A DNA stretch of 64,000 nucleotides. It comes from Psammoneis japonica. Its lineage: Eukaryota. The position numbers and the translations under genes were made by a program. Location: positions 124,001-188,000 of the forward strand of contig QPGO01000060.1 of the NCBI GenBank assembly GCA_008632985.1, in the 5' to 3' direction. Numbering within the stretch: the first letter of the stretch is position 1; the number at the start of each line of letters is the position of its first letter. Under the pieces are notes generated by a model. That model saw only the letters and a list, made by a program, of their open reading frames with translations, was not told the origin of the DNA and searched no databases. Below, in pieces: positions 3,140 through 26,009 of this stretch.

Positions 3140-5900
3140 GTGAAACATCACTCTAAAAATGTAAAAGGGGGGACATGATGTGGAGACACAAGAAAATTTG
3201 CAAGCCAACTGTTTGCTACCGGTGTAACATTTTGCCCCTTCCAGCAAATGCTCACTGTGTTGTGGCATTGCCAGCACAGGAAAAACCCCGACTCATCCTT
3301 CCCATCAAAGGTCAGATCCAAGTTGCAGCCTCCTGCTGCTTTGCAGACAAACACAATGAAGTCTTGGTTTGTTGGTTGACCAAAATTCAGTCAGTTGATT
3401 TTGGTGTTGAACAGGCAGGCCTTGCCAAACTTGCAACTGTGTGTTGTTGTCAACAGCTGTGTCAGGTCTTGTCTTTGTTTCAACATGTTGTCACTGCAAT
3501 TGGCTTCTGTGTTGGGGCCTGGAAAGTGTTTTGCCTTACTTGCAGGCTTTGTCAAGTCCCCTGGAAGCTTGTCAAGAAATTGGCTTATCTTCAGTGCTCA
3601 TTTTCCAGGCAACAACCACCATTTGTGAATCGTGGGTGGGACCATGCATGGTCCACACCCTCAGCCAAGGCTCAGGTTTGGGTGGCAGCCAAACATTGCC
3701 AGATGCCAATTTGGTGAGAAGTTTTTAAACAATTGTTGCCAATGCTGGGGCCAGAGTCACCAAATTGGGGGTTGGGTGTCAGCACATTGAAATTCAAAAA
3801 AGTCCAGAGCAGCTCACTTTTCACAAAGCGGCTGCAGCAACAATGACCACCAAGCAGGCTTTTGGCAACAACACACACATGAGAGGAGAGAGAGTGTGGT
3901 CAAGGTGACCAAAACTCCTCCCCCCCCATGGTTTGACACACAACAGCTTGAACAGACATTGAGTGCCTGCTTTTCATTCCCTCTGAGCAAAGAAACAGGG
4001 TTCATTTCCAAGGTGCACCTTCTGTGTTGAGAGCATTTGATGCCCACAGCAGTGACTGGCCATGCTGAGATGTCTGCAACAGGGTTTCCAAAGTGCAATG
4101 CAATGAGTGAGATTGTTTGCATCAGGAGGCAATGGAGCATGTGTCCATCTGCAACTGCAGCTGATGAGGACAACAAATGCCAACAACTGGAGGGGGATTT
4201 GCTGCTCAATGAGATGCTTCATCAAAGAACTCCAACACCATCCAGCAGCAGCCAAAAGAAACCCGGATGTTGACAGATTGACACAAACAATTGACAGCTT
4301 CCATTGACTGGCAAGAGGTTGAAAAATTGATGTCATGAACATCAGCACACAAAAATGATTAAAAGCCACAACATGGCTGATTCCAACACGAGCTGTTCAA
4401 TGTCGGTTGCATGCACCGACACCACCCGCCGGTGTTGCAATGCACAAAATGAACAAATGAGCCATGGCAGAGACCTTCATTGTCATTGTTGCTGCCAACT
4501 GCCCACTCTTAAATGCCATGCCCTTTTCTTGCAGCATGTTTTGCAGCAAGTTTCAGGCTTTGTTTCCTCTGCTGTGCTGTCTAAACTTTTGGCTCAGCCC
4601 CATCACTCTCTCAACTCATGTGCAATGCACACCCAGAAAAACAATGATGGAGCATCGCAGCAACCTTCCAAAACACAAAAAGTCAACAGGCAGCCCTTGT
4701 GCAAAACCTCAAAGACCATTTGCAGTCTCAACAAACAAAGGGGGTGCAATTGGTCAACAAACTGAAGCTTTCAAGGCCACCATGCAGTTGCTTGTTTGCA
4801 ATTCTAACAAGTCTTGGTGGGGCCAAAAACCATGAAAGGATTGTCCCAGAGAATTGTGTCACAACCCCACTGAGCCCCAGCCAAATTTTCCCCACCTCTG
4901 ATGCTTTGCTGTTTGAGCTTTTGCCTTGGCCCTGTCACTCTCTCAATTCGTGCACAATGCACACCCAGAAAAACAATCATGGAGCATGGCAGCAACCTTC
5001 CAAAAAGCACCACAATCACAATGTCAGCAAGGCAGCCCTTGTGCAAAACCTCAGAAAACATTTGCAGCATCAACAAAAGAGGGGCAATTGATCAATGAAC
5101 AAAAGCTCTCAAGATCACAAAGCAGTTGCTTGTTTGCAATTCTGACAAGTCTTGGTGGGCCAAAAACAATGGAAGGGCTGTCCTGGAGAATTGTGCTGCA
5201 ATTGCGTCGAGTCCCAGCCAAATTGTTCCTGCCTCTTGTGCTGTCCTGTTTGAACTTTTAGCTCATCCATGTCACTCTCTCATTGCACGCACTGCACACA
5301 TCCAGCAAAACAATCATGGAGCAGCAGCAACCTTGCAAAAAGCACAAAGTGAACCATGCGGCCCTTGCACAAAACCTCGGAGAACATTTGCAATCTCACA
5401 ACAAAAGGGGGCAATTGACCAACAAACAAAAGCCATGTCCAGGTTGCCATGCAGCCACTCCTTGACAATTCTGACAAGTTTGGCATGGCCAAAAGCCATG
5501 GAACGATTGCCCCAAAGAAATTTGCCACATCCCCCGGGCAAACAGGGCCAAGAATCTGTCAGAATCTCCTAACTTTCAAGAGGTTGCCTTGGCTGCTTTG
5601 AAGGTGGGTGTGCTCCACTGGGACATGGTCAAGCTGATGAAAGAAAAGTGTCATCAAAGCAGAGCATTGTCTTTCATTGGTCTCTTCAAGGGTGGGCTGA
5701 TCTGCAATCTTCAACAGGATGCTCTGCTGTGGACTCAAGATGACATCAAGCATTGTTTGGAGCACACAAACATTGGCTGGAGAAAAGTTGATGGTTTGCA
5801 ACATTCTTTGCCACCACAACAGTGCAAGAACAAAGAATGAGGCACACACTTGCCGCTGATTGTCCCCACAATTTCCCACTCAGTTTGCAGAGAGACTTGT
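3140..5900. mobile_element. Degenerate TpA/CpG-depleted block, probably decayed transposon or repeat DNA of unknown family
   Basis: TA and CG are nearly absent and TG/CA is abundant. Many short Cys/His-rich ORFs lack Tyr and no domain is recognisable. The composition matches the decayed copia at 53.5-60.7 kb. Confidence 0.5.
4545..5520 (+). repeat. Three diverged tandem copies of a ~335-bp unit
   Basis: 'TGCACACCCAGAAAAACAAT(G/C)ATGGAGCA...GCAACCTT' recurs near 4625, 4958 and 5293. 'GTGCAAAACCTC' and 'ATTCT(A/G)ACAAGT' recur at similar spacing. Confidence 0.8.
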
Positions 5901-6167
5901 GCCTGCAAGGTTGGTCGATGATGTTGACTTCATAGCGCAAGCTTTTGAAATAAATCCTTTTATCTTGTTGCGCGTCAGTCGAAGTCATGGTCTGCACAGA
6001 TCCTAAAAAACTGGGTGGTGTGCCAAGAGGAGTTCGAGAGCCTTGGGGAATGAGGCTGATTCTGGCGATTGTCTTGAGTCGAGCGCCATCGACAGCATCA
6101 AATAGATTAAGAGTTCAAAGAACGTGTTCATGATGTCTATTTTCTGCATAGTCTACTGTAGCTACAA

Positions 6168-9100
6168 TCAATCACGTTCGTAGTTCAATATCGGAGACAG
6201 CCATCTTTCGGTAACGCCGAGCTCAAGACCCTTCCTCTTTGAGTAGCTTTCGACTTGATCCTTGCCAACCTGTCCTACCGCAAAGTATTGAGATTCAGGG
6301 TGGGCAAACACTAAGGCCGATACAGAACTTGCTGGCATCATGCTGAGAGATTCACTCAATTCGATACCCGCCAACTCCTTGGCCTTAATCGTGTTCCACA
6401 TTGTTGTCTTCTCCGTATGATCCGGTTGCGACGGGTATCCTGGAGCAGGACGAATCCCGTCGTATTTGATTTTCAACAAGTCCGCCTCGTTGAGCTGTTC
6501 ATCCTTGGCATACCCCCACAAATCGACACGCATCTGTCGGTGCAAGTATTCCGCAAAAGCTTCGACAAAACGATCAGCCAGGGCTTGGCACATGATTTTG
6601 GAATAATCGTCATTTTCGGCTTCGTACATTGCAACTAGTTCTTCACAACCAAAGCAAGACACCGCAAACATGCCCAAGTGGTCACTGTATCCCTTGGGTG
6701 CGATGAAGTCAGCTTGACTAAAATAGGGGTCCTCTGATTCCTTTTCGGCTTGTTGGCGAAGCATGCAGAAGCGATTCATAGGCTTGTCGGAGATTCGGTC
6801 TTCTTCGGAAGCGTACACAATAACATCCTCTCCGTCTTCGCTACGATTGGCTGGGAACAAGCCAACGACACCCTTGAGATTCATGCTACCGTCTTTAACT
6901 ATTTTTGCCATTATGGCCTGGGCGTCATCAAACAGTTTCTTGGCTTCAGCGCCGACTGCCTCGTCGTTAAAAATCTTGGGATATCCACGATTTGGGTACC
7001 GGCCACGAAGCTCCCAAGTCTGGAAAAAAGGATTCTGATCACCGACAACAAACGATCCGAGCTGTAAGAATGCTGGATTACAACACCAAGAATGCTCGCG
7101 TGTTTCTAGACTTACCCAATCCATATAAGGTACCACATCTTCCAGCGTGACAGTGTCGATCACAGTAATTCCCATCTTGTGGGGCGCAGGCGCAACTGGC
7201 GACGAGTCAAAGTCAATTGTGAATTTCTGTTCCTGGGCCTGTTCAAATGTGAGGAAATATCGGTCCTCTAAACCGGCATAGTAGTCCTCGCGCATCTGAA
7301 AACGGGTATAAAAAAATCAAGAGGCTTCAGCAATCGAACAAGGACAATGTTGTTCGGGGCGTGATTTCACTTTTGGGTGAACTCACCACGTCATATTCCT
7401 CCATAATATCTTCTACGAACTCCTCCTTATTGTCGCTGAGAAGAGATGATACAACCGTGACAGATCGAGATGCGTCCAGGACATGAATGACAGGGTGTTC
7501 TAGAGTGAAATAGTTCGGCGAGATCTTTACAGCAGTGTGCATCTTGGACGTCGTCGCACCTCCAATCAACAAAGGCTGTTTGAATCCGCCCTTGGACATT
7601 TCCTTGGCAACAACAACCATCTCATCCAACGAAGGTGTAATGAGACCGGAGAGACCTATTACATCAACATTGTACTCCTTGGCCTTTTCTAGAATCGTTT
7701 CGCATGACACCATAACTCCAATGTCGTAAACCTTAAAATTATTGCAACCCAATACAACTGATACGATGTTCTTTCCGATATCATGGACGTCACCCTTGAC
7801 GGTGGCCATCAGAACCTTGCCTAGTGCACGAAGGAAAGTGTTAGCAAACGCGAGCTTACCATGCCAACAAGAGAAACTCTTTCGTCACTGCCGAATTCTT
7901 ACCTGCAAAATTAGAATCATCATTCTCGTCGAAATCATCTGGATTCAACCCCTGGGCAATCATGTTTTCCCTCTTCTCTTTTTCCATGAACGGAAGCAAG
8001 TACGCCACCGCCTTCTTCATGACACGAGCCGATTTAATGACTTGCGGTAGAAACATCTTTCCGGAACCGAATAAGTCCCCAACAACATTCATACCGTCCA
8101 TCAGCGGCCCTTCGATAACTTCCAAAGGACGGCTGCATGACTGACGAGCTTCCTCAACATCAGTAACAACGTGTTCGGAGATGCCGTTTACCAAAGCATG
8201 TTCTAACCTCTTTTTTGCGTCCAGATCACGCCACGATTTTTCTTTTTCCTGCACCGCACCTCCACCTTTTTTACGGGCTTCAATGGCTTCCTTTTCTTTT
8301 TTCGTCAAGTCCAGCATCACATCAGTGGCATCCTCCGTCTTGTTGAATACGAGGTTCTCGCAAGCAACAAGAAACTCTGGTTCCACTTCGTCGATAGCAA
8401 GCATTTCTTTCGCATTCACGATGCCAACGTCCATTCCGGACTCAAGTATGGCGTGACGCAGGAACACGGCATGAATCGATTCGCGGACTTTCGTTACTCC
8501 TCTGAATCCAAACGAGAGGTTCGAAATACCACCGCTAACCTTTACGTACGGACACTGTTCCTTGATGGTCTTTGTTGCGTTGATAAAGTCAACTCCATAG
8601 TTGGCGTGTTCCTCCATGCCGGTACCAATCGTCAATACATTGGGATCAAACACAATATCTTCTGGAGGGTAACCCACTTCATTTACAAGAATATCGTACG
8701 AGCGTTTGCATATACGAACCTTGTCCTCCTCGGTCGCAGCTTGTCCTTGTTCGTCAAACGCCATGACTACTACTGCGGCACCGTGTTTCTTCAACAATGT
8801 CGCTTGTTCCTTGAACAACTCTTCTCCGACCTTGAGAGAGATGGAGTTCACAATACACTTGCCCTGGCACCACTTGAGTCCAGCCAAAACAATTTCGAAT
8901 TTGGACGCATCCAACATAAAGGGAACTTTTGCTACTTCAGGCTCTGTGACAGCAATCTTGACAAACTTTTGCATAGCGGCCAATCCATCAAGCATACCGT
9001 CATCAACATTGATATCAATCACATGAGCACCATCCTCGACTTGCTTCTTCGCTATATCCATGGCAGTTCCATAGTCACCCGCCATCATGAGCTTTTTGAA

Positions 9101-12100
9101 GCGAATCGATCCGGAAATATTGCAACGCTCACCCACGTTCAAGAACGGTAAGCCCAAGTGGTTATGAACATCATCGACAACCAAGTCTTCGAGACCAGAA
9201 AGCCACATCTTGGGACGGCCAATGTCTGGAAGCTGTCTTGGCTTGTACTGCTCCGACATTTCGCGAATGGCCTTGATGTGGGGCGGAGTGGATCCACAGC
9301 AACCACCAACCATGTTCAACCACCCGTTCTCGAAAAATACCTTATTGTACTCTGCCATATCTTCCGGTGTTTCGTCATAGCCACCCATGGCGTTGGGAAG
9401 ACCAGCGTTAGAGTACACATGGACAAAACATTCGACAACCTTGGCAAGTCTCTCAACGAACGGAGTCATGTGCTGGGCACCAAGAGCACAGTTAAGACCC
9501 ACACACATGGGCTTGGCGTGACGGACCGAAGCATAAAAGGCTTCTCCAGTTTGACCGGACAAGGTGCGGCCCGACTGGTCCACAAGAGTTCCAGAAATAA
9601 ACACGGGGATGTCTAACCCAGAAAAGTCCAAGAACTCGCCAATTGCGAACAATGCAGCTTTGGCGTTAAGTGTATCGAAAATGGTTTCCACCATTAGAAT
9701 ATCAGCACCACCGTCGACCAACCCAACAACTTGCTCAAAGTACGTCTCCACCAACTCGTCAAAGGTCACGTTTCTGGCCGAAGGGTCTTCTACCGAAGGA
9801 GAAATTGAACCAGTACGGTTGGTCGGACCAATGGCACCCACGACAAAGCGGGGCTTGGTGGGGTCCTTGGCTGTTACCTCGTCGCAAGCCTCACGAGCTA
9901 GTTTTGCACCGCAATAGTTCAGTTCATAAGCATATGCCTCCATATTGTAGTCAGCCATGGCGATTGTTGTTGAAGAAAAGGTGTTAGTTCCAATCAAATT
10001 TGATCCTCCTTCTTCAAGATACGCCTTGTAAATGTCCGAAATGATTTGAGGCTGTGTAATGGACAACATATCGTTGTTTCCCTTGACATTGCAGTTCCAA
10101 TCCTTGAACTGCTCTCCACGGTACTCTTCTTCGTCGAGCTTGTTGCGCTTGGCATAATTCTGAATCATTGTACCCATGGCTCCATCATAGATTGCAATCT
10201 GACTCGTAAAGAGCGACGTAATATATTCCCGTACCGAATCACGTCCTCGTACAAAGTGAGGAAACGACTCGGGGTATAAATCACGAGGCTGCGAGTAATC
10301 AATACAGATATCTTTGCTTGCGGTAGTTGATTTCTGGCGAATAGCGGTAATCTTCTCGTGGGTGAGATTGGAGTTCAAATAGGGGTTCGGGACATGATTC
10401 TTCGCAGCTTCTGACGTTGGTAGAGGCGGTTCGATGGCAGGTTTGGGGGTGACATTGTCATACGAGAATGCAAGGCGTGGCCTGTTTACAGGTTTGCCAC
10501 GAGGCTTCCGAGGCGGAGGCAAGCCCTTCTTTTTGGCGTCGATGCATGCTCTTTCATACGCTGTCCGCTTCAACATCTCGTCTGTCGCATCCTCGGTCTT
10601 GTTGAATACGAGGTTCTCGCATAGCACCCTCATGTCGTCGTCTAATTCATCGATAGCAAGCATTTCTTTCGCATTCACAATACCAACGTCCATTCCGGAC
10701 TCAAGTATGGCGTGATGCAGGAACACGGCATGAATTGATTCGCGGATTTTCGTTACTCCTCTGAATCCAAACGAGAGGTTCGAAATACCACCGCTGACCT
10801 TCACGTACGGACACTGTTCCTTGATGGTCTTTGTTGCGTTGATAAAGTCAACTCCATAGTTGGCGTGTTCCTCCATGCCGGTACCAATCGTCAATACATT
10901 GGGATCAAACACAATATCTTCTGGAGGGTAACCCACTTCATTTACAAGAATGTCGTACGAGCGTTTGCATATACGAACCTTGTCCTCCTCGGTCGCAGCT
11001 TGTCCTTGTTCGTCAAACGCCATGACTACTACTGCAGCACCGTGTTTCTTCAACAATGTCGCTTGTTCCTTGAACAACTCTTCTCCGACCTTGAGAGAGA
11101 TGGAGTTCACAATACACTTGCCCTGGCACCACTTGAGTCCAGCCAAAACAATTTCGAATTTGGACGCATCCAACATAAAGGGAACTTTTGCTACTTCAGG
11201 CTCCGTGACAGCAATCTTGACAAACTTTTGCATAGCGGCCAATCCATCAAGCATACCGTCATCGACATTGATATCAATCACATGAGCACCATCCTCGACT
11301 TGCTTCTTCGCTATATCCATGGCTGTTCCATAGTCACCCGCCATCATGAGCTTTTTGAAGCGAATCGATCCGGAAATATTGCAACGCTCACCCACGTTCA
11401 AGAACGGTAAGCCCAAGTGGTTATGAACATCATCGACAACCAAGTCCTCGAGACCAGAAAGCCACATCTTGGGACGGCCAATGTCTGGAAGCTGTCTTGG
11501 CTTGTACTGCTCCGACATTTCGCGAATGGCCTTGATGTGGGGCGGAGTGGATCCACAGCAACCACCAACCATGTTCAACCACCCATTCTCGAAAAATACC
11601 TTATTGTACTCTGCCATGTCTTCCGGTGTTTCGTCATAGCCACCCATGGCGTTGGGAAGACCAGCGTTAGAGTACACATGGACAAAACATTCGACAACCT
11701 TGGCAAGTCTCTCAACGAACGGAGTCATGTGCTGGGCACCAAGAGCACAGTTAAGACCCACACACATGGGCTTGGCGTGACGGACCGAAGCATAAAAGGC
11801 TTCTCCAGTTTGACCGGACAAGGTGCGGCCCGACTGGTCCACAAGAGTTCCAGAAATAAACACGGGGATGTCTAATCCCGAAAAGTCCAAGAACTCGCCA
11901 ATTGCGAACAATGCAGCTTTGGCGTTAAGTGTATCGAAAATGGTTTCCACCATTAGAATATCAGCACCACCGTCGACCAACCCAACAACTTGCTCAAAGT
12001 ACGTCTCTACCAACTCGTCAAAGGTCACGTTTCTGGCGGACGGGTCTTCTACCGAAGGAGAAATTGAACCAGTACGGTTGGTCGGACCAATGGCACCCAC

Positions 12101-15018
12101 GACAAAGCGGGGCTTGGTGGGGTCCTTGGCTGTTACCTCGTCGCAAGCCTCACGAGCTAGCTTTGCACCACAGTAATTCAGTTCATAAGCATATGCCTCC
12201 ATATTGTAGTCAGCCATGGCGATTGTTGTAGAAGAGAAGGTGTTAGTTCCAATCAAATTTGATCCTCCTTCTTCAAGATACGCCTTGTAAATGTCTGAAA
12301 TGATTGAGGCTGTGTAATGGACAACATATCGTTGTTACCCTTGACATTGCAGTTCCAATCCTTGAACTGCTCTCCGCGGTACTCTTCTTCATCGAGCTTG
12401 TTGCGCTTGGCATAATTCTGAATCATTGTACCCATGGCCCCATCATAGATTGCAATCTGACTCGTAAAGAGCGATGTAATATATTCCCGTACCGAATCAC
12501 GTCCTCGTACAAAGTGAGGAAACGACTCGGGGTATAAATCACGAGGCTGCGAGTAATCAATACAGATATCTTTGCTTGCGGTAGTTGATTTCTGGCGAAT
12601 AGCGGTAATCTTCTCGTGGGTGAGATTGGAGTTCAAATAGGGGTTCGGGACATGATTCTTCGCGGCTTCTGACGTTGGTAGAGGCGGTTCGATGGCAGGT
12701 TTGGGGGTGACATTGTCATACGAGAATGCAAGGCGTGGCCTGTTTACAGGTTTGCCACGAGGCTTCCGAGGCGGAGGCAAGCCCTTCTTTTTGGCGTCGA
12801 TGCATGCTCTTTCGTACTCTGTCCGTTTCAGCATCTCGTCTGTCGCATCCTCGGTCTTGTTGAATACGAGGTTCTCGCATAGCACCCTCATGTCGTCGTC
12901 TAATTCATCGATAGCAAGCATTTCTTTCGCATTCACAATACCAACGTCCATTCCGGACTCAAGTATGGCGTGATGCAGGAACACGGCATGAATTGATTCG
13001 CGGATTTTCGTTACTCCTCTGAATCCAAACGAAAGGTTCGAAATACCACCGCTAACCTTTACGTACGGACACTGTTCCTTGATGGTCTTTGTTGCGTTGA
13101 TAAAGTCAACTCCATAGTTGGCGTGTTCCTCCATGCCGGTACCAATCGTCAATACATTGGGATCAAACACAATATCTTCTGGAGGGTAACCCACTTCATT
13201 AACAAGAATGTCGTACGAGCGTTTGCATATACGAGCCTTGTCCTCCTCGGTCGCAGCTTGTCCTTGTTCGTCAAACGCCATGACTACTACTGCAGCACCA
13301 TGTTTCTTCAACAATGTCGCTTGTTCCTTGAACAACTCTTCTCCGACCTTGAGAGAGATGGAGTTCACAATACACTTGCCCTGGCACCACTTGAGTCCAG
13401 CCAAAACAATTTCGAATTTGGACGCATCCAACATAAAGGGAACTTTTGCTACTTCAGGCTCTGTGACAGCAATCTTGACAAACTTTTGCATAGCGGCCAA
13501 TCCATCAAGCATACCGTCATCGACATTGATATCAATCACATGAGCACCATCCTCGACTTGCTTCTTCGCTATATCCATGGCTGTTCCATAGTCACCCGCC
13601 ATCATGAGCTTTTTGAAGCGAATCGATCCGGAAATATTGCAACGCTCACCCACGTTCAAGAACGGTAAGCCCAAGTGGTTATGAACATCATCAACAACCA
13701 AGTCTTCGAGACCAGAAAGCCACATCTTGGGACGGCCAATGTCTGGAAGCCTTCTTGGCTTGTACTGCTCCGACATTTCGCGAATGGCCTTGATGTGGGG
13801 CGGAGTGGATCCACAGCAACCACCAACCATGTTCAACCACCCATTCTCGAAAAATACCTTATTATACTCTGCCATGTCTTCCGGTGTTTCGTCGTAGCCA
13901 CCCATGGCGTTGGGAAGACCAGCGTTAGAATAGACATGAAGGAAACACTCAACGACCTTGTCTAGTTTCTCAACAAACGGAGTCATGTGCTGGGCACCAA
14001 GAGCACAGTTAAGACCCACACACATGGGCTTGGCGTGACGGATCGAAGCGTAAAAGGCTTCTCCAGTTTGACCGGACAAGGTGCGGCCCGACTGGTCCAC
14101 AAGAGTTCCAGAAATAAACACGGGAATGTCTAACCCCGAAAAGTCCAAGAACTCGCCAATTGCAAATAATGCTGCTTTGGCATTGAGTGTATCGAAAATG
14201 GTTTCCACCATTAGAATATCAGCACCACCGTCGACCAACCCAACAACTTGCTCAAAGTACGTCTCTACCAACTCGTCAAAGGTCACGTTTCTGGCGGACG
14301 GGTCTTCTACCGAAGGAGAAATTGAACCAGTACGGTTGGTTGGACCAATGGCACCCACGACAAAGCGGGGCTTGGTGGGGTCCTTGGCTGTTACCTCGTC
14401 GCAAGCCTCACGAGCTAGCTTTGCACCGCAATAGTTCAGTTCATAAGCATATGCTTCCATATTGTAGTCAGCCATGGCGATTGTTGTAGAAGAAAAGGTG
14501 TTAGTCCCAATCAAATTTGATCCTCCTTCTTCAAGATACGCCTTGTAAATGTCTGAAATGATTTGAGGCTGTGTAATGGACAACATGTCGTTGTTACCCT
14601 TGACATTGCAGTTCCAATCCTTGAACTGCTCTCCGCGGTACTCTTCTTCGTCGAGCTTGTTGCGCTTGGCATAATTCTGAATCATTGTACCCATGGCTCC
14701 ATCATAGATTGCAATCTGACTCGTAAAGAGCGACGTAATATATTCCCGTACCGAATCACGTCCTCGTACAAAGTGAGGAAAGGACTCGGGGTACAAGTCC
14801 TTGGGTTGATCATAATCCAAATCAACGTTCTTAACGGTTGCTTTCTGACGAATCGCCGCTATTTTCTCATGAGTCAACTTTGAATTCACATAGGGATTCG
14901 GAACATGGTTCTGAGCAGCATAGGATGTGGGTAGTGGAGGCTCGGTTGCTTCTTTTGGCTCCACGTTGTCATACGGAAAGGTAACTCGAGGCAGATCGGG
15001 CCGTTCTGCCTTGCTCAT
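6168..15018 (-). CDS. metH: Cobalamin-dependent methionine synthase with a triplicated Hcy-binding + pterin-binding module (~2865 aa if a 1-bp indel at ~12304 is corrected)
   Basis: ATG 15018. There are three copies of DGAMGT...GLNCALG...GGCCG (Zn/Hcy domain) and GERCN...DINVD (pterin domain), then a cap domain ([14 protein letters not shown]), the B12 motif DVHDIG and an activation domain (RPAPGYP). Introns at 7821-7902, 7296-7386 and 7035-7115 restore conserved sequence. Confidence 0.95.
8260..15018 (-). repeat. Intragenic tandem triplication in metH, period 2259/2258 bp
   Basis: Identical antisense ORFs start at 9564, 11823 and 14081. The copies differ mostly at synonymous positions. Confidence 0.95.
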
Positions 15019-15593: not shown

Positions 15594-15869
15594 TGACAGA
15601 AAATGAAGGCAAATGGCAAGAATTCAAACAACAACTCCTTGCTGCTGTCTAAATGGCAGATGAGTCTCCGCTCAGAGACCGTTACAGGAGCCGAAAGACG
15701 TGCAAGTTGGTATAATCGGGCTACTGTCATTGTTCTTGTGAGCCTTGTGGCTCAAAAGCAAACTGCATCGTGCGTGAACGCGCAGAACTAAAGCACACAA
15801 AACTGTGCACGGCAAACTAAACAGCGCGCGATGCTTCGCGCGCACCTAAATCCTGTTCAAATCCTGTCA
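15594..15869 (-). repeat. 3' LTR of the copia (hypermutated copy)
   Basis: It aligns without gaps to 22424-22699 with 13 substitutions. Confidence 0.97.
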
Positions 15870-18800
15870 CTCCCCAGTTTGCTTGAGGAGCCACAGAAAC
15901 AGATTCGACTTCGGATGGAATGAAGTTCCAGAACATGAGGGGGCGGAGAAGGTCCCAGATTTGGGAGCAACCCCAATGCTTGCTGAGAATGTCAGCAGGG
16001 TTGCGGGAGCCTTCGATGAATTGGAACTCAAGGCAACCAGAGGCAATTGCCTCACGCACACGGTGGAACGACAGTGCGGTGTGTCGCTTGTGTAACTTGG
16101 AGTGCGGGATGGTGGCACTGTCTACAACCGACTTGTTGTCACCGAACATGTGACTGACGTCACGGATCGGGACGCCAAGGTGGCGCAGGGTGATGCGCAG
16201 GTCGATGGTCTGCTCAACACAAGTCCTTGCGGCAACAAATTCAGACCCGCAGGTCGCAGTCTCCACGGTGGCTTGTTTCTTAGAGAACCAATCAGCCGGG
16301 AATTTGTTGAGGAAGTGGAGCATTCCCATGACAGAGCGTCCGGTGAGCATGCAATGGTGCAAGTTTGCATCGACGTAGTGGGTGGCAGTGACGAACTTGC
16401 CAAGGGGCGGTGGAGCGTCCTTCGGGATCATCTCTTCTGCTTCACCACACACGGAATGCATCCATTCACAGGCCGGAGCAGGGAGATCCGAACAGTCGGG
16501 CTCTTCCGTGCGAACGCGGAGAGCACCGTGTCGCATCTTGGAGAGGCACCCACAGACGCATTTGGCACGATCCAAGTGGCCTTGACGGGGCGCAGCTCGG
16601 AAGCTAGAGAGTGACATGACGGCCGTGGTGATGTCAATTCGACCAAGGGACACTGCCCATTGGAGTGAACCAACAAGAGACTGGAACTTGTGAATGCCAT
16701 CGGGTCCCAGCAGTTCGGAAGTGTCCAGTTCGGGGTGGTCACCCTTCTCTAGAGGTGACAGGGTGTTGGTGGCAGGTTTCTCCCCAAACAGTCGGGCACA
16801 GCTGTCGACCATGCGCTCGATGTACTTGCGCGGAGACAGGCACAAGGTTCCGTCGGGTTCCCGGGAAAAGTCGCAACCCAGATGGAACTCAATGGGTCCC
16901 GCACCCTTGAGCTTGAACTTGTGCTTTTCCGTGAGAGTGTCGACGAAAGATTGAGGGTCCTTCATGGCAATGGCGAGGTCATCCACATAAACGGCAATGT
17001 ATTCACAGTGGTCGCCGTTCCTGCGCATCCAAATGTCGGGTTCGGCGCGGCAGGGGAAGAAGCCTTCAGCTCGCAGGCAGTCGGCGAAGCGCTCGTGCCA
17101 GCGGAGACCGGAGCTGCGCAGTCCATGCAGTGCCTTGTGGATGACAAGGATGTGTCCTTCGAGTTTGCCGAACTCGGGTCCAGCTACAATGTAAAGCTTC
17201 TCCTTGGTGGTGGCTTCAAGGTAGGCATTGCCAATGTCGGTGGCCCATGTCTCCAACTCGTTGAGTTCGGCCAGGAAAATCATCAGCCGAAGGCCACGGA
17301 GGGAGACTACTCCGGAGTAGACACTGTCGACAGGTACGTCCGTGAGGTGCCCGTCGGCTACGAGTCGTGCCTTGTGGCGACCGTCGTGTTTCACATCGTG
17401 CGCTAGGTGCACTCGGATCTTCTTGCATCCCGCAGGAGGAGTGGAAGACTTGAAGGGCCCGCAGTCATGGAAGACTTCGTATTCGTCGAGTTGGTCCATC
17501 TCGAGATTGGTTGCGTCTCCCCACTTGCGGTTGCCGTTGCGTTCGTCTAGTGACATGGCGTGTTTGTAGTTCCGGGGAACTTCGCATCCACACTTGCAGC
17601 GGGGTGCAGTGCGGAAGGAGCGAAGCTTGGCTTGGTTGGCCATGCGAAACAGCTTCTTTTGGCGCCTCGCGATGGTGCGGAACCGCTTCCAGCCATCCGT
17701 GTCGAGGAGTCCGTTCTCTCGTGCATAGATGGCACAGGTGACGGGGTCGTCCTTGGCGATGATGGCAAGAGGCTCGGACGTGATCTCCCCACTTTCCCAT
17801 TCAAGCATGATGTTGTAGCTGGAGCCTTTCCAGGTTGGGTCGTGAGGCTTCAGAGGTCCTTCGTGTGACACGATGCATCGAAATTTCCAAACAGTGGTGT
17901 CTTCGTCTTCTTGCTCAATGTGATTCATGATGTCATTGCAGGCGAGGACTTCCTCGTATTCGTCATTGTTGACAGAGCAGACGAACTTAGTGAGCTCGGG
18001 ATTGCCATTCACTTTCCATTCGTGGTCTTCGACGGCCTTGACGATGCGAGCTCTGTGGCGTTGTCCATCCTCTTGTGGCTGCATGAGGAAGGTACGTCCA
18101 ATGATGTCTTGCGGATCGAAAACTGGCATCTTGGGTGTCCTGATCTCCCCATCAGGAGAGTCGACGGGGTTGTCGTCATGGCAAGATTTGATGATGGGTT
18201 CAGGTGGCTCCCCATCAGGAGGATCAAGACGCAGGTTTCGAACGGCAGGATCGGGGGTAGCGGAGCGGACGTTGGACCGGTAGAGGATCTTCTGAGTCTC
18301 GTCAGATAGAATCTTGAAGGTCATCTGGTGGCCGACGTGCTCAGCAATGCCAACGAAGCGTCCACGCAACTCACGGGATTCAGACGGCCAATCGGAGTCA
18401 TCGAGGTGGAAGTGCACGGGTTCCCACCAGTGAAAGCGAAGCAATGGGCTGATGTCCGGGGTGGAGCCAGTGAGAGTCTCGAGGGGCGTGCGCCAGTGGA
18501 GACGTGGGGACGCTGCATGGTTGAGCATGAAGCACACGCACATGAGCGCCAGCAGCCATGTGTGGGCGGGCGAACCAAAACGATCCATGACAGTGTTCGC
18601 CATGCGCTTCACGGTCTGGCATCGACGCTCGGCAAAGTTTTGGTGTTGCTGGTGAGGCTCACTTTGCCAGCTAGAGATGAAGAGGGCGCGCAGGATCCCG
18701 AGCACTTTGTTGCTGATCTCAACTTGAGCACGGTCGCTAATGAGTTTGGATGGGGCACCACGTGCACGGATCTGATCCTCGAGTGTGTTGACAAACTCTT

Positions 18801-21486
18801 TGTCCGTCTTAGTGCCGTAGACGTCAGTGACGGTAGACTCGGTGCCAACAAACAGTTGGGCGCTGGTGCAACCAGAGTCGACGGCCGGGGTGTCGGCACA
18901 AACGGTGTCAGTGGCGACAGGCTCGTTGCGGCGGTGCACATTAAGGGCGGGGTTGGGTGATTTGTAGGCCTTGCGAAGGTGTGTACCGGCGGGCATGCGG
19001 GCGTACTGCGTGGTGCAGTCAAAAGTACGACGGACCGTGTCGGTAGGTAGGAAGCCAAAGTAAGGCCGAAGAGACTCGAAGGGGGGGTCCTTGGGCTGCA
19101 CAGTGCGCTCCGGAGGTGTAACGTCATCGCCCTGGGGGCCAATCGCATGCAGATGACACTCGCAGAACACGTCGTCGTTCGGAATGAGGTGATCATCGAG
19201 GGCGGACGCGTGATCGGCAGACAAGGAAGCGGACAAGATGGTCTCGTTGACAACGACACGATGACGGTAGTTGCCGCATTCGTCAAACAGGTTGGCAGTG
19301 GGATCGTCCTGTAGGTCAGAGATCGCGTCGTACCACTGGTCGTCGTCAGTGACAGAGTGATCGAGGACGGAAGGGTCCCATGTGTCATCACCGGTGAGGA
19401 TGACATGGGGCAGGGTGTCCCATTCGGCGTCAGTGTAAGGTCGCATGGCAACATAAGGCAGGCCAGCCTTGATGTCAATGGGGATGACACAGCCATCAGG
19501 AGTGGCAATACGTTGCAAGCCGTTGGGCACCTTGACAGAGTGATCGTTGACATCCTGTTTGTGCCATTCGAGCTGGCCGCAGGAATGGATGGTCTTGCCC
19601 TTTCCCGTGCATGCGTGCTGATGGAGGATGGCGATGACGGGACCACGCTGGGTCTCAATGACGGCACCAGCGGTGACAATGGGGATGTCCACCAATTGAT
19701 GATCGTCAATGCCCTGAACGTCGACTTGGCGAGAGGTGCGTGCAATGACGCGAACGTTGTCGCCAGCAATGCCGCCGTTGGCCCCACGATCGACTAGAGC
19801 ACCAGTGCGTGTGGATCGATGAGCAGAGGCAGAGTAAATGACATTGTGGTTGTCAACGCGGCGGCAAGTGCGGCCGTTAAGCTCCATGTTATCTGCAGAA
19901 GCTGGCGGGGTAGAGGAAGCGGCGGATGGCCCCGGTCGACTGGCATTGGGGGCTTGGTTAGGAGACAACAGACGTTGCAGATCACTGGGTGGCAGTGGCT
20001 TGCGCTTGGTGAGGTGCGCCAGGATGGGATTGTCCGAAGTGGCGTCCACATGTGGGGCGGAGTCACCAGAGTCAGCAGGAGTCGTGTTGGACAAGTTGAC
20101 ATCACCGTCACTCCCAAGGTGTTGGTCGTGAAGGTTGGCCGTAACAGACTCATGGCAGTTGCTGGCTCGCGGATTGCGGGGAGGTGGACGAGAATGCTCA
20201 AGGATGATCGCCTTGGAGGAATCGGGCAACGAGTCCCAGAGCCGTTGGTGGTCGGGAGGGAGACGTCTCCATTGGACACCGGTGAGGCTGGGACCGCGGG
20301 TGCAGGCAGCATTGGCTTGAAGGACGTCAACATCGCTGTCAATGTCGTAGAACACATCGTCGGACGGTTCCTCGGAGCAGACGTCGTGTGCGTGTGTGGC
20401 GCGTCGGGGAGCTCGAGGTGTCGTCTTGGGTTGAAACGTGCTGTCGTACTGAGCTGCCGCGGAGAGGAGCAAGCCACAGCATTGATCGTATGTGAGGCTC
20501 TTGCCACTCTGCGTACGATGCTGATCAGCTTGGTTCTTGACAGCACGGAGTTCCTCGACAGGGTGCACGGCATTCTCGAGCATGACGCGCTTCTGTCCTT
20601 CAGAGAAGTGGTCACTGGCCGGGGTGAGTGCCTCGCACTTGCGCAACTGATCTTGCCAATGAAGGATGAACCCGTGGGTCGGACCTTTCCAAGTGCCATC
20701 ACCAAGACGCGCGGTGGTGAGGTACGTGAGCAGGGTGGAGGACTCGATGGATGCGCGGGTGGAGGCAAGCGCGCACTCAGACAAGGAGCGGCAGACGGTC
20801 TGTGCGTCAGAAGACCCCACATTTTCGCGAATGAGAGCCTTGCCCTTGTCGGTGAGAAGGATGTGTTCGAAGATGGCGAACATGTGCTTTTGCTGTTCAG
20901 CAAAGAGCAGTTTGTCTTCGGGGCTGGTCGGTTTGTACGACGAGTCTAGAATGCACTTGACGTCTTGGGCACGGGCTTGTGCCACAAGTGAGGTGTGCCA
21001 AGTGTGCCACTGCTTGTCGGATTTGAGAGCCGTGAAAGCGGTGGGATCACACTTGATGCCTCGCTTGAAGTCCCGCACCGGGTCGCGTGCCTTGGTCGGG
21101 TTGGTGACATGTGGAGGTGCAAGGGGTGAGCTGCCGATGGACACAGAAGACATGCAGTCGGGGCTGAGGCGGCAGGCAAGGAACTCGTCATGCGTGAACA
21201 AAGAGGAGTTGTTGGCAACGTCAAGACCTTTGTGTGCTTTAACAATGTGCAGACTGACCAGTGCTGCTAACATGTTCTTACAACCACGGGGCAAAGGGAT
21301 TGCATCAGTGCCGTTGTCGCACTCAAGCGAGTCGATTTGGGACGGCATGAACGTGAACAGTTCCTGACATGAGTCCGTGCCGTCTTGGGCCAAAGCCAAA
21401 CGAAGAGGACTCCCAGCACCTTGGGCAAGCACGGTTCCAACCACGTGCTCGAAACCATCGGTTTGTTGCTGGCGAGTGAGAACCAT
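15817..21486 (-). CDS. Copia gag-pol polyprotein (protease-integrase-RT-RNase H), open but with many Tyr>Cys/His changes
   Basis: ATG 21486. Motifs in copia order: protease LVDRGANGG; integrase ATDTV / SDRAQ / AERR; RT KARLVADG, DIGNAYL, YVDD; RNase H YVDANL, SEF, GDN, ADILSK. The stop codon lies inside the 3' LTR. Confidence 0.95.
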   Translation of the reverse strand: MVLTRQQQTDGFEHVVGTVLAQGAGSPLRLALAQDGTDSCQELFTFMPSQIDSLECDNGTDAIPLPRGCKNMLAALVSLHIVKAHKGLDVANNSSLFTHDEFLACRLSPDCMSSVSIGSSPLAPPHVTNPTKARDPVRDFKRGIKCDPTAFTALKSDKQWHTWHTSLVAQARAQDVKCILDSSYKPTSPEDKLLFAEQQKHMFAIFEHILLTDKGKALIRENVGSSDAQTVCRSLSECALASTRASIESSTLLTYLTTARLGDGTWKGPTHGFILHWQDQLRKCEALTPASDHFSEGQKRVMLENAVHPVEELRAVKNQADQHRTQSGKSLTYDQCCGLLLSAAAQYDSTFQPKTTPRAPRRATHAHDVCSEEPSDDVFYDIDSDVDVLQANAACTRGPSLTGVQWRRLPPDHQRLWDSLPDSSKAIILEHSRPPPRNPRASNCHESVTANLHDQHLGSDGDVNLSNTTPADSGDSAPHVDATSDNPILAHLTKRKPLPPSDLQRLLSPNQAPNASRPGPSAASSTPPASADNMELNGRTCRRVDNHNVIYSASAHRSTRTGALVDRGANGGIAGDNVRVIARTSRQVDVQGIDDHQLVDIPIVTAGAVIETQRGPVIAILHQHACTGKGKTIHSCGQLEWHKQDVNDHSVKVPNGLQRIATPDGCVIPIDIKAGLPYVAMRPYTDAEWDTLPHVILTGDDTWDPSVLDHSVTDDDQWYDAISDLQDDPTANLFDECGNYRHRVVVNETILSASLSADHASALDDHLIPNDDVFCECHLHAIGPQGDDVTPPERTVQPKDPPFESLRPYFGFLPTDTVRRTFDCTTQYARMPAGTHLRKAYKSPNPALNVHRRNEPVATDTVCADTPAVDSGCTSAQLFVGTESTVTDVYGTKTDKEFVNTLEDQIRARGAPSKLISDRAQVEISNKVLGILRALFISSWQSEPHQQHQNFAERRCQTVKRMANTVMDRFGSPAHTWLLALMCVCFMLNHAASPRLHWRTPLETLTGSTPDISPLLRFHWWEPVHFHLDDSDWPSESRELRGRFVGIAEHVGHQMTFKILSDETQKILYRSNVRSATPDPAVRNLRLDPPDGEPPEPIIKSCHDDNPVDSPDGEIRTPKMPVFDPQDIIGRTFLMQPQEDGQRHRARIVKAVEDHEWKVNGNPELTKFVCSVNNDEYEEVLACNDIMNHIEQEDEDTTVWKFRCIVSHEGPLKPHDPTWKGSSYNIMLEWESGEITSEPLAIIAKDDPVTCAIYARENGLLDTDGWKRFRTIARRQKKLFRMANQAKLRSFRTAPRCKCGCEVPRNYKHAMSLDERNGNRKWGDATNLEMDQLDEYEVFHDCGPFKSSTPPAGCKKIRVHLAHDVKHDGRHKARLVADGHLTDVPVDSVYSGVVSLRGLRLMIFLAELNELETWATDIGNAYLEATTKEKLYIVAGPEFGKLEGHILVIHKALHGLRSSGLRWHERFADCLRAEGFFPCRAEPDIWMRRNGDHCEYIAVYVDDLAIAMKDPQSFVDTLTEKHKFKLKGAGPIEFHLGCDFSREPDGTLCLSPRKYIERMVDSCARLFGEKPATNTLSPLEKGDHPELDTSELLGPDGIHKFQSLVGSLQWAVSLGRIDITTAVMSLSSFRAAPRQGHLDRAKCVCGCLSKMRHGALRVRTEEPDCSDLPAPACEWMHSVCGEAEEMIPKDAPPPLGKFVTATHYVDANLHHCMLTGRSVMGMLHFLNKFPADWFSKKQATVETATCGSEFVAARTCVEQTIDLRITLRHLGVPIRDVSHMFGDNKSVVDSATIPHSKLHKRHTALSFHRVREAIASGCLEFQFIEGSRNPADILSKHWGCSQIWDLLRPLMFWNFIPSEVESVSVAPQANWGVTGFEQDLGAREASRAV

Positions 21487-22412
21487 GGCAGACAAAAAAT
21501 GGTGTCAGGACAATCAATTCTGGTTGGGAAGCGAAGGCAGACTCGAAACTTGGGTGAGAATGGACTTGACTTGAAATGGACTTGACTTGAAATCTTGAAC
21601 TATCTTAAAATCAGAAGTCGCCGGGCTTTGTCATCCCATTCGTTGTTGAGTGCTAAACTTCCCATCCGGTCCGTAGAGTTGTGCCGGCACGTCCGAACCC
21701 GCAGCTGGCGGCGCTTTGGGTTGCTTGCGAGCAGAGTAGCGGGTTGTAAACCCCTGCAGGTAAGCTGACTGGAGGTGGACAAGACCCCCGAACCGTTCTT
21801 ATTTTATGTCGGTTGGATTTCCCGATCAGGCTGGCCAGTTGACGCAGGCGTTGGGCGCTGTGGACGAACGAACAAACGCGGGAAAGCACCCTCGCCCCAA
21901 CGCAGGCTGCAATCACGGCTGCTTGCTCTCACAGTCGTCCTCGTGGACCTAGTAGAACTGTAGAGCACCAGCAGTCCGGGGTAGATCAGGTACAATGGAC
22001 TCGGTGTGCTTGTAGAGTGGCAGCAAAACCGCAGTCCGAAGAGTGGGTACAGGTTCTTGGCCGTGAAGATATGTATATATATATATGTCTTCAGCAACGA
22101 AGATCCTTGAATATGTAGGGTTCTTGACCGTTAACCGATGAATAGGTATATCAAGGGATGAGGATCAAGGATAGACTTGGATATGACCGTTGAATGTATG
22201 TCTTCAGCGATCGAAGGTAGTATAATCAATCCAGATATCCAGCGGTAAGGAGACTTGACGGTGACGTTAACTTCCTGCCGATGCCCTGGTATTGAATGCG
22301 CGTAGACTTGCCGATGTATGTAGAATATATACGGAGGTCCACGTAGAATTAAAAAGTCGTTGGTAAATCAACGACGACGATGGCGGTTGCTCAATGGGTT
22401 GACAATGAGCAA

Positions 22413-22423
22413 GACTGTTAATC
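22413..22423 (-). promoter_or_regulatory. Candidate primer-binding site complementary to a tRNA-Asn(GTT) anticodon arm
   Basis: The plus strand reads GACTGTTAATC immediately inside the 5' LTR, which is an Asn anticodon stem-loop sequence. There is no TGG-type PBS. Confidence 0.55.
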
Positions 22424-22699
22424 TGACAGAAAATGAAGGCAAATGGCAAGAATTCAAACAATAACTCCTTACTGCTGTCTAAATAGCAGATGAGTCTCCG
22501 CTCAGAGACCGTTACAGGAGCCGAAAGACGTGTAAGTCGGTATAATCGGGCTACTGTTATTATTCTTGTGAGCCTTGTGGCTCGAAAGCAAACTACATCG
22601 CGCGTGAACGCGCGGAACTAAAGCACACAAAACTGTGCACGGTAAACTAAACAGCGCGCGATACTTCGCGCGCACCTAAATCCTGTTCAAATCCTGTCA
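22424..22699 (-). repeat. 5' LTR of the copia (retains TA and CG)
   Basis: It aligns without gaps to 15594-15869. Confidence 0.97.
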
Positions 22700-22704
22700 C
22701 CAGA

Positions 22705-25700
22705 CGAACTTTTCTCTCAATTGTCGTTCGACAATGGAGAGCATCAAACAATGGAAAAAACAGAGCTCGGCATTGTGTGATGTTTGCTGTCAAGCAGAGG
22801 TTGCTCACGGGGACTTGCATGACTTGACACATTCTTAAACTCAATGGACTGAATGTCTGCAAGAGTGAACAAAAGACTCTGGGGCATGTCTCTGCCATCC
22901 CTGTCGTCTCACGATGACGCACAAACTTCATGTCACCGATTTTTGGTGATGAGGCACGCAGCGCTCCAGGCATTTCTCACAGAGCAGAAAATCCTGAAAA
23001 ATCATGTCATCATGCCTTCACCCCTTTGTTCTGCGATGGCCTTAAATCCTCCCAATTTGGGACAAATCGAGGGATTTGAAGACAAACGCATGTCCATCGT
23101 TTCCATCAACAAATGTCCGCGATTTCAAATCAAAAACCTGCCCTCCCAACCAGGTTGTGCACATCAACAAGTTGGTGACAAAGCAACATTCCATCTGTGT
23201 TTTTCTGACTGACATTTGATCACTTTGCTTGTTTTCCAAAATCTTGATTTGTGGTGCATGTTTGCACAATTCAACAATGCAAGCATTTGGTTTGCACCGC
23301 ATTTTTACAACTGAATTTTTCAATCCCTTGTTGCTCTCCAGTTCATTTGTGACTTCCTTCAAAGCAGTCATGAGCTCCTGTGTCTTCTGCTCTGTTTGCA
23401 CCTTGTTCATGTTCTTGTTTTGACTGTCTCATGATTTCTCCCTTGCCTCCTTGAACTGGTTTGCCAGCTCCTGCACCACCCCTTGTGTTCCATCATCTCT
23501 TCTGGGTCTTTTTCCAACCAGGTGAATGTGCTTGAGTTGTTGTCTGTGTCCTTGCCTTCTTCTCTGCAATGACAAGCTCTGGCAGGATCCTCTCACAGAA
23601 GTCTTCTCCCCTGGTTGGGTTTCCTCCATTGTCCACCTCCACATCACAGTCTGAGCCAAAAGAGCTGTCCTTGTTGTTGCTCTTGCACACTCTGCATGCC
23701 ACACATCAAAGTTGTTCTTCAGGAGCATGTGGGCAAATGCTTTGGCACATGATGTGCCCATCCTTGTCTCCCAACCATTCTCTCCCACTGCTGGTTGCAA
23801 GCAACAGGCAGTTGCAGAACACCGTGTGCAATGCAGGGTTGGACAAACGCTCGTGGAATCTTTCCAGCAATGACAACACACAATTGTTTTTTGTGGCAAG
23901 TGCAAAGCTTTGTGCAACAAGGAATGCATCAACAACAATGTCAGTGTTTGTCTTGCTTGTCAACGCTGCTGGCCACACACTCTCACTGTGGCTGCAATTG
24001 GTCCTGCTGAGCCTGGTGAGCATTTGATTGCTTCAGTGCTGGCCACTCCTGATGCATTCTTCCTTTCTTCATTTTCATCCACAGAAAATGCAGGCATGAA
24101 GTTTGTTGCACCTCTGGAAGCTCCAACAGAGAGCATTCTGCATTCCATCCATCAGCACTGGTCCACAGTGCTGGGCAAAGTCTTTGTGCAGCATGCTCAT
24201 TTCCTCCATCTGCCTTTCAACAAACACAAACATGATGCTGAGAAACACCTTTTCTTTGACATGGTCTCTCACCTTGATTTTGCTGCATGCCCTGCCATCA
24301 TTGGCCATCCACTCAGCTGGGTTCACTTGCCTCTGGAATGTGGTTGTCATGATTTGGTTGGCACTTGGTTGTGTGGTGTTTTTTGCAAAGCTCACCTTTT
24401 GCTTGTCAGTCATCTTGTTGCCAGGGTTCACCATTGCAATCTGATCTCCTTTACAATCAGCCAATGCTCCCAGGTCAGGTGTGCATTTGAGCCTTCTTGA
24501 GATTGAAAATCTCCACACAAGCACCCACATTGTCATGTGTGGACAACATTGGCATGGAAATGCTCATGAAGTCCAATGCCTCCTGGGTTCAGTTCTCAAT
24601 GCGTGGATGCAAGTCCAGCAGAAAATTGTGCCTGTGCTGCAGCCAAAGAGTCAACCACTTTGGCAGGAGGAGATTGATGCTGACTGAAAAGAAATCTTCA
24701 ATGAGTTTCCCACCTCCCGGGTCAAGCAGCAGTGCACATGGACCACTTTGAATGCAAAAAAGCATTTGTGTTTTTGCCTCATGAAACTGGCAAAGTTTCG
24801 CCACATTCGCCACTGCTGTGGCCAAATGCAGCATGTCACACAAACATTGGCAAAGAAACCACACCCAACAGCCTTTGCATTGTCATCAATTGCACCTCTC
24901 CTGCTGTGGAGAAGGTGTTGCTGTCTTCAGCAACAAGATCTTTGCTTGGCAATGGAGTGAGAAGGTTCTGTCTTTGTTCTTCCGCAGTGAGGCATCACCA
25001 TCATCCTGAACAGACACACACCAAAATCTTCTTTAGCCTCATCAGCCAGCCCACAGTGGTCTCTTGTTGTCATTTGTGATGGTGTTGTGCAATGGTGTTG
25101 CAAAGCATCCTCACATGGTGCAGTGCACACTTCAAGAGTTTTGCACTCAGAAAAGGCGTCAGGGGCAATGTTGTCATCCTTGGAGCAACCCAGCATTTGC
25201 TGCTGAGTTTTCATCATGCAGGACATTCTGTGCAATGACACAGGGTGTTGTCAGGGGCAGGTTCTGTAATTCTGCCATTTTCTTGGTCAGATTCTTGAGA
25301 AGTTTGCACGGGAGTCCTCTTGCACCTTTGTCACTTGTGTGGATCACTCCTGGCAGCATCGCATTTGGCTGTGGAGCCACCATGCCCACATTTGAGCTGT
25401 TTCAATCATGCCAGTGGATGCTTGAGGTGCTGAGCCATGTTCCTCAATGGAGCTCTTGTAGGGCAGTCATGGCCATCGACACACTGTGCAATTCGTGCTC
25501 TCATCCACACCTGCTTCCTCTGCACTGTTCAACAAGAATTTGCCATGCCAAGAGAAAAACACTGAGGAGCACGCGAAACATTGTTCTGGTGTTTTGGATG
25601 GCACTGCCACATTCACAGCACACTCGGTCGAAACATGCTGTTTGTGCAGATGACCACTCTACACAGGGCAATGTCGGTTGTCTGCATCGGCACGTACTCG
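22705..25700 (-). mobile_element. Decayed TpA/CpG-depleted element, possibly a DNA-transposon remnant, with the copia inserted at its edge
   Basis: TA and CG are nearly absent. Broken minus-strand fragments ('VRDHVKEKVF', 'AFAHMLLKNNFDVW', 'GWKK') resemble diatom TE accessory ORFs, but the family could not be assigned. Confidence 0.5.
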
Positions 25701-26009
25701 AAACATTCACACTGGCATGATAATTTGGAAATTCACGGCCGGCGCTTGCTGCGACGGGCGATCGACGGGCACCCAAGTTTTTTGAAGCAGACATACCAAC
25801 AATGTTTTAGTCGTGGTTTGCTGATTTTGAATCACGACCGTTCTGTGGAAATCTACGCACGCCAGTACAAAACACAAGACGCGTAAACAGCAACGGTCAA
25901 ACGCCCAACACCATTGCCAATAAAACACGAACCAGTCTGATTGCTAGTTGTATTGTTATCTTACCAACCAGTTTTGCATACCCATCCCCTGACTTTATCA
26001 TTCAATTCA

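Follow-up and report, generated by a model that had tools for sequence, protein, structure and literature searches.

A methionine synthase gene of the diatom Psammoneis japonica that probably serves one cobalamin domain with three homocysteine–folate modules

Why would a methionine synthase carry several substrate-binding modules for a single cofactor? The question is raised by a 64,000-nt stretch of the Psammoneis japonica genome (contig QPGO01000060.1, positions 124,001 to 188,000; hereafter the window), which carries on its minus strand, at 6168..15018, a gene for cobalamin-dependent methionine synthase (METH), the enzyme behind algal vitamin B12 dependence. Judged from its sequence, the gene probably encodes a functional enzyme with three modules, each a homocysteine-binding (Hcy) plus a folate (pterin-binding, Fol) domain, ahead of one cobalamin domain. 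Our preferred reading, to which we give a probability of roughly 0.45, is that several intact Hcy/Fol didomains may feed methyl-folate and homocysteine to one cobalamin and so raise the output per scarce B12.

Pfam placed one Hcy (PF02574) and one pterin-binding (PF00809) domain in the frame 15018–12256 and two of each in the frame 12334–7859, together with single cap (PF02607), B12-binding (PF02310), and activation (PF02965) domains, in agreement with the domain content proposed in a preliminary description of the locus. A MetE identity was rejected, PF01717 and PF08267 not being among the Pfam matches of the four METH frames. There are four exons (15018–7903, 7820–7387, 7295–7116, and 7034–6168), and the three introns, of 82 nt (7821..7902), 91 nt (7296..7386), and 81 nt (7035..7115, in frame), are predicted from homology and have GT-AG borders. 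With these removed and one N inserted at a break in the frame, the protein is 2865 aa long and the Hcy plus folate module recurs with a period of 753 aa. It opens with an N-terminal extension of ∼101 aa (14716..15018) that is common to stramenopile METH, and its start codon agrees with the N-termini of relatives. Module 1 comprises an Hcy domain at 13774..14715 (GLNC at 14016, GGCC at 13824) and a folate domain at 12859..13665; module 2, an Hcy domain at 11516..12456 (GLNC at 11758, GGCC at 11566) and a folate domain at 10601..11407; and module 3, an Hcy domain at 9257..10198 (GLNC at 9499, GGCC at 9307) and a folate domain at 8342..9148, whose terminal-type tail leads into the Fol:Cap linker. 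The cap domain (7997..8242), the cobalamin-binding domain (7387..7820, with the only DVHDIG motif at 7791), and the activation (AdoMet) domain with the stop codon (6168..7040) complete the gene. All three Hcy domains hold three Zn-ligand cysteines (GLNC and GGCC each occur three times, as had been claimed), and the folate barrel, the cap plus DxHxxG cobalamin domain, and the activation domain of MetH are all present; where the canonical layout has a single Hcy and a single Fol domain for each cobalamin domain, this gene has three of each.

The third module might be an assembly artefact, in which two haplotypes of a two-module gene were joined one period out of register: the modules are 97–98% identical and the linkers differ at 5/376 nt, which are allele-like distances, two modules are the commonest state among relatives, and no read spans the array. 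Contig depth, a check that the preliminary description had named, speaks against this. Copy number was taken from short-read contigs of run X1 (one sample, possibly the assembly's source) over the region 6100–10640, with 16 of 134 contig pieces shown and 0 contigs placed by run X3; depth is one figure per contig, which the tool warns is a poor measure of copy number, and the expected depth of each contig was the number of assembled copies holding each of its 31-mers. Four single-copy contigs had depths of 58.1–64.5 (mean 61.4), the core repeat contigs had 141, 120, and 124.6, and the connector contig had 97.5; one contig joins 10640 back to 8387. The resulting 2.30, 1.95, 2.03, and 1.59 copies compare with 2.52, 1.88–2.05, 2.07, and 1.75 under the three-module model, whereas two-module models give 1.52–1.83, 1.09–1.72, 1.31–1.47, and 0.75–1.00; a 3/2 heterozygote, which may still be the case, would predict 1.69–1.77, 2.02–2.18, and 1.25–1.38 copies for the contigs observed at 2.03, 2.30, and 1.59, respectively. 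An out-of-register join is most directly at odds with the linker contig, at 1.59 times single copy where two-module models allow at most 1.0, and with the longest contig (contig 7), in which 16–59 of 558 31-mers are absent from the two-module models and none from the three-module model. Inflation of the repeat depth by dispersed METH fragments was ruled out, the 13 fetched loci sharing 0 window-repeat 31-mers, a result that applies to the fetched copies. In addition, a relative whose modules are 91% identical to those of the window (P0448) also has three. Because the contig depths fit three modules, misassembly of the third is unlikely; we consider it very likely that the three modules are real, and the haplotype join highly improbable.

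As assembled, the gene is not one frame. The frame from the start codon ends at codon 922 and the remainder lies in a second frame; the repeat spacings are 2259 and 2258 nt, the difference being a base missing from an AAA run (12304..12306) of module 2 by comparison with modules 1 and 3; the deletion interrupts Hcy domain 2. The preliminary description overlooked this stop, and its length of about 2865 aa is correct provided that a single base is supplied there. We think it probable that the deletion is an assembly error, since the genome gave no METE match, none of the other METH copies checked was intact, and only synonymous change is seen among the differences private to module 2 downstream of the break (nine, all at third positions). 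Polishing fails at single homopolymer bases inside 98%-identical repeats. A genuine frameshift, which would make this copy a broken or heterozygous null allele left by a recent faulty duplication, seems to us very unlikely. The deletion is present in the assembly, and the gap-free short-read contigs at the equivalent site can come from modules 1 and 3 and hence do not exclude it: the 31-mers of the covering contig, 558 in all, can be accounted for whether or not the base is included, and the contig can be built from modules 1 and 3 without module 2. In neither of the two covering runs, however, was a deletion listed at the equivalent position 10047.

The anatomy of the repeat suggests how it has been maintained. 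Over 1883 nt of module core, identity is 97.6% between modules 1 and 2, 97.0% between 1 and 3, and 98.1% between 2 and 3; 37/43, 44/53, and 31/34 of the differing codons, respectively, are synonymous. Module 2 has 12 private substitutions, every one of them at a third codon position. The ends are not homogenized: the N-terminal extension of module 1 is strongly unlike its copies in the connectors, and the Fol3 tail differs from those of Fol1 and Fol2. Connector 1 (12457..12858) and connector 2 (10199..10600) are each 134 aa long and consist of a Fol:Cap-like helix forming the Fol tail, the PPPRKPRG motif (at 12789 in connector 1), and a stretch of ∼100 aa that is a diverged repeat of the N-terminal extension. 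The Pro/Lys-rich linker of the preliminary description, [14 protein letters not shown], does occur twice, but it makes up only 14 residues of a connector that is predicted to be ordered: in an AlphaFold2 model of Fol2-connector-Hcy3-Fol3-cap built with 69 sequences (pLDDT 83.9, pTM 0.71), the connector block has a pLDDT of 70–97. An ESM Atlas search with the connector gave no usable match, which, given its low recognition value, indicates neither novelty nor absence. The two connectors differ at 5/376 nt and in 1 aa, and because they are 99% identical the third module appears to be recent or recently converted. Two internal junctions and one terminal-type tail, the arrangement of multi-module stramenopile METH, are present, and the pattern would fit an old two-module gene with converted cores that grew to three by unequal crossing-over.

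The relatives examined were the 120 best matches of 820–2611 aa and 18 matches longer than 2611 aa; the query spanned a junction and scores sum over repeats, both of which favor multi-module proteins. At least two modules were found in 93 of the best 120, mostly in proteins of ∼2100 aa and including Nitzschia, Epithemia, Hondaea, and Mucochytrium, a proportion that is not an estimate of frequency. All 18 longer matches had at least three: 15 have three, and Bryopsis and Haematococcus have four, while a Symbiodinium model consists of two fused three-module genes. In the survey of other diatoms that the preliminary description had called for, two modules are common among the stramenopile matches and three are present in the deposited METH of Skeletonema marinoi and Stephanodiscus triporus (S. 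menzelii has two). Its comparison with a canonical MetH of 1230–1260 aa leaves out of account that the close relatives are mostly two-module proteins and that other algae have forms with three or four; what is recent in this gene is therefore just the third module. The internal junction motif is retained after 79/85 internal folate domains vs. 0/82 terminal ones, and the junction is read through in transcriptome-derived proteins of relatives P0056, P0057, and P0145. Haptophytes, oomycetes, and brown and red algae lay outside this sample, and the labels pelagophyte, labyrinthulid, and prasinophyte-like follow the names of the relatives.

The remaining 27 of the best 120 matches have a single module. 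Twenty-one were scored as having one end inside an internal junction, another two on inspection begin in a Fol tail, and four look complete; because some 23 of the 27 are cut in this way, many algal METH models of ∼1250–1450 aa are probably collapsed or truncated. The 1251-aa model of Thalassiosira pseudonana (P0159) begins inside the Hcy domain and may likewise be truncated. Chlamydomonas reinhardtii P0087 (2453 aa), unlike C. incerta, has three Hcy domains and an only partial second Fol domain, a layout that may reflect a gene-model error. The streptophyte-type single-module proteins P0352, P0362, P0348, P0379, and P0404 have an N-terminal PF16561 domain instead of repeated modules. A search of 50% representatives with the activation domain yielded mainly fragments, which say nothing about architecture.

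Compared with solved MetH/MTR structures (human 9ssp/4ccz; Thermus 8ssc and 8g3h), the window protein shares the five Pfam domains in canonical order, the Zn ligands, and DxHxxG, and its modelled Hcy-Fol didomain superposes on the N-terminal half of human MTR with a TM-score of 0.95 (by target) and an rmsd of 2.3 Å; it differs in the threefold Hcy plus Fol, the extension of ∼100 aa, and the 134-aa connector. No repeated-module structure was among the Foldseek matches listed. Two-module stramenopile enzymes (Nitzschia inconspicua, 2113 aa; Epithemia, 2119 aa; Hondaea, 2120 aa; Skeletonema menzelii, 2111 aa) share with it the N-extension, the PPPRKPR junction, and the homogenized cores, and the window protein has one module more. 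Its architecture, and nearly its length, is that of the three-module stramenopile proteins from S. marinoi (KAK1744626.1, 2858 aa), Stephanodiscus triporus (KAL3762808.1, 2893 aa), and Chrysophaeum taylorii (2877 aa) and of P0121, P0448, and P0001; the deposited ones bear no annotation beyond methionine synthase or hypothetical protein, and the literature searches turned up no paper on them. They are probably separate triplications, since relatives with two modules fall in between. METH of chlorophytes (three or four modules) and dinoflagellates (three) also places homogenized Hcy plus Fol repeats on one cap-cobalamin-activation unit, with linkers of about 85 aa and 110–130 aa that lack similarity to the stramenopile linker.

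When 96 modules were placed in one tree, the modules of the same protein formed one clade in 33 of 37 proteins, the window modules among them, and in 76 of 101 proteins the first and last Hcy domains shared 99% identity or more (median 100%). Short-read assemblies can inflate such identity within a gene, and entries on megabase contigs show it too. A 48-row tree was then based on the last module plus the C-terminus; it is a quick LG+G4 tree with long prokaryote-like branches, and its groups were picked after the module tree. Multi-module METH fell into three groups, namely stramenopiles with a sister pair, chlorophytes, and Polarella with one further protein; chlorophyte METH branched from within the single-module enzymes of streptophytes, fungi, and animals, and the window METH lay inside a five-row diatom clade (SH-aLRT 100). 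A single clade of all multi-module METH was rejected (p-AU 0.001), as was a clade of stramenopile plus chlorophyte METH (p-AU 5e-5), and linker profiles gave 0 cross-group matches among the stramenopile, chlorophyte, and dinoflagellate groups. Because the linkers are unrelated and a single clade is rejected, two independent origins appear well supported and three likely; formally, one early gain of repeated modules followed by several losses could also account for the distribution. For the stramenopiles the results support a history in which [N-extension-Hcy-Fol] was duplicated in an ancestor, gene conversion has held the module cores near-identical while position-specific ends diverged, and unequal crossing-over between modules 1 and 2 probably gave the window gene its third module, with parallels in a number of further diatoms.

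P. japonica probably relies on the window METH, because no other intact METH and no METE match was found in the genome. PF01717 had no match, against matches in 9 of 14 control genomes; absence from a draft genome is weak evidence. As candidates for a second intact METH, the copies on C81 and C62 were rejected as fragmentary or with stops, and the Hcy-family matches on C55, C30, and C60 as having no tblastn match to METH at E < 1e-4; C116, C205, and other copies were seen as short pieces only.

Active sites were checked in 102 multi-module proteins at key residues chosen from known motifs. Nine folate-site positions were intact in every Fol domain apart from a pair of first domains that carry deletions, and Zn ligands were lost in five first, one middle, and one last Hcy domain. 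In P0040/P0168 the last Hcy domain reads GGCS, the first (distal) keeps GGCC, and both folate domains are kept, a pattern that hints at use of the distal sites in these proteins. MetH is reported to be inactivated by oxidation about once per 2,000 turnovers, and binding of CH3-H4folate triggers the conformational change that starts turnover (PMC10293825). Our preferred reading builds on these properties: one cobalamin domain would be served by several Hcy/Fol didomains in a partly ordered array, so that with more methyl-folate-loaded Fol barrels in reach cob(I)alamin might be remethylated sooner, giving more turnovers per B12 and rarer oxidation to inactive cob(II). The third module would add to a benefit already given by the second and would not itself be required. 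The best argument for selection on the repeats is that collapse to one module would be easy and, in sequence terms, harmless, since the product would be canonical and complete. The repeat nevertheless persists and has arisen again, and the cobalamin domain was not repeated along with the modules in the proteins examined. The repeated origins, the unrepeated cobalamin domain, and the missing METE match lend indirect support to this reading, which the preliminary description had put forward as higher turnover per B12.

Several observations weigh against it. Close relatives vary in module number (P0002 has two and P0448 three, within the same 90% cluster), and single-module METH serves B12-using early-diverging fungi, a sea cucumber, and Closterium and other streptophyte-like entries. 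The first Hcy domain is degenerate in P0054, P0059, P0061, P0071, and P0072, which keep both folate domains, and because of these five proteins the first Hcy site is to be regarded as dispensable in some lineages. The main caution is that gene conversion alone keeps active-site residues, so their retention is not proof of activity. The AlphaFold2 model, at its pTM, does not establish packing between neighboring modules, and the short reads do not decide the frameshift, the covering contig fitting both versions. Finally, according to a preprint, a short Fol:Cap hinge steers the cobalamin domain over 30–45 Å in solved structures and the rate-limiting steps of MetH are conformational (bioRxiv 10.1101/2024.08.29.610163); reach to modules one or two periods away is not obviously possible.

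That reach problem would be avoided if the upstream modules acted in trans or as a reservoir, methylating or demethylating the cobalamin of other METH molecules or free or chaperone-bound cobalamin, or holding methyl-folate near the enzyme. Isolated N-terminal halves of MetH are reported in the same preprint to work in trans, on the C-terminal half or on exogenous cobalamin (bioRxiv 10.1101/2024.08.29.610163), and conservation is stricter at folate than at Hcy sites; a trans role, however, has no need of a covalent fusion kept through several independent origins, and we regard it as unlikely though far from negligible. The extra modules could instead be catalytically idle and kept for structure, stability, regulation, or neutrally, with gene conversion mimicking intactness and unequal crossing-over letting the number drift. 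The median first–last Hcy identity of 100%, the variable number between close relatives, the five proteins without first-domain Zn ligands, and the four matches that look like true or collapsed single-module diatom proteins all agree with idleness; the long retention of the repeat with a conserved junction in diatom, labyrinthulid, and pelagophyte matches, the old three-module forms with diverged linkers (P0001, P0121, and P0122), the repeated origins, and P0040, in which GGCC is intact only in the distal domain, do not. For the extra modules as a whole we consider idleness unlikely; for the third module alone it is quite likely. The P0040/P0168 and first-Hcy-loss variants are natural tests of which module is used.

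The window METH is not unique and apparently represents one case of a widespread, convergent, and little-described architecture. One passing mention was found in print: in PMC4523565, a 2,280-nt in-frame "intron" of Phaeodactylum METH is said to encode a second MetH plus pterin-binding domain with EST support and is called unverified; on that description we group it with the two-module stramenopile enzymes. Repeated modules go unmentioned in the main-text passages of PMC11439496, PMC11197592 (plus its section 3.2), PMC10861871, PMC6557843, PMC10828217, and PMC13483994, supplements lying outside this scope, and title searches, whose coverage leaves out most subscription journals, returned no title on the subject. 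The full-length dinoflagellate metH cDNAs described in PMC11197592 comprise the usual four domains without repetition, a result hard to square with the three-module dinoflagellate gene models. If two to four modules per cofactor are common in algae, the textbook one-to-one shuttle model would fail for major marine producers, cis vs. trans use of distant active sites could be tested in Chlamydomonas and Phaeodactylum, and module number would become a candidate B12-economy trait. More tentatively, and with some doubt, we suggest that stramenopiles, chlorophytes, and dinoflagellates may each have evolved two to four active modules per cobalamin, converging on a design that saves B12. Gene conversion would keep the modules uniform, collapsed assemblies and false introns would have concealed them so far, and the B12 requirement of a species would be tuned by how many it has. 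In practice, peptides, qPCR primers, and read counts placed in the repeat would be expected to overcount METH two- to four-fold.

Elsewhere in the genome (G000), METH copies L022 and L023 on C81 and L014/L016 on C116 are degenerate, with stops, and in run X2 (record 11) several read contigs pass over sequence where METH introns would lie, which suggests that the degenerate copies are partly processed pseudogenes. A dispersed element of ∼2.2 kb at L003–L010 (contigs C146, C27, C47, C72, C61, C54, C11, and C293) contains ∼670 bp of METH Fol-tail/connector at 75–86% identity; terminal inverted repeats of 33–35 bp were present in L004 and L006 and not found in L008. It is a non-autonomous DNA transposon with a captured METH internal junction. 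In the dispersed METH copies (L003–L016), the share of bases that differ is 29% within TpA, 22% within CpG, and 9.6% elsewhere, the changes at TpA being chiefly A>G/T>C, and repeats in the window (4001–6000, 24001–26000, and 54001–62000) have observed/expected ratios of 0.02–0.14 for TpA and 0.07–0.32 for CpG, vs. about 0.55 and 1.0 in genes, which suggests a TpA-directed mutation process acting on repeats. The tandem METH repeat has escaped this process. Upstream of METH, a Copia-type long terminal repeat (LTR) retrotransposon occupies 15594–22700, with 277-bp LTRs that are 95% identical and a 1895-aa frame with RVT_2; it ends ∼575 bp from the METH start codon, and a related LTR lies inside the element at L003.

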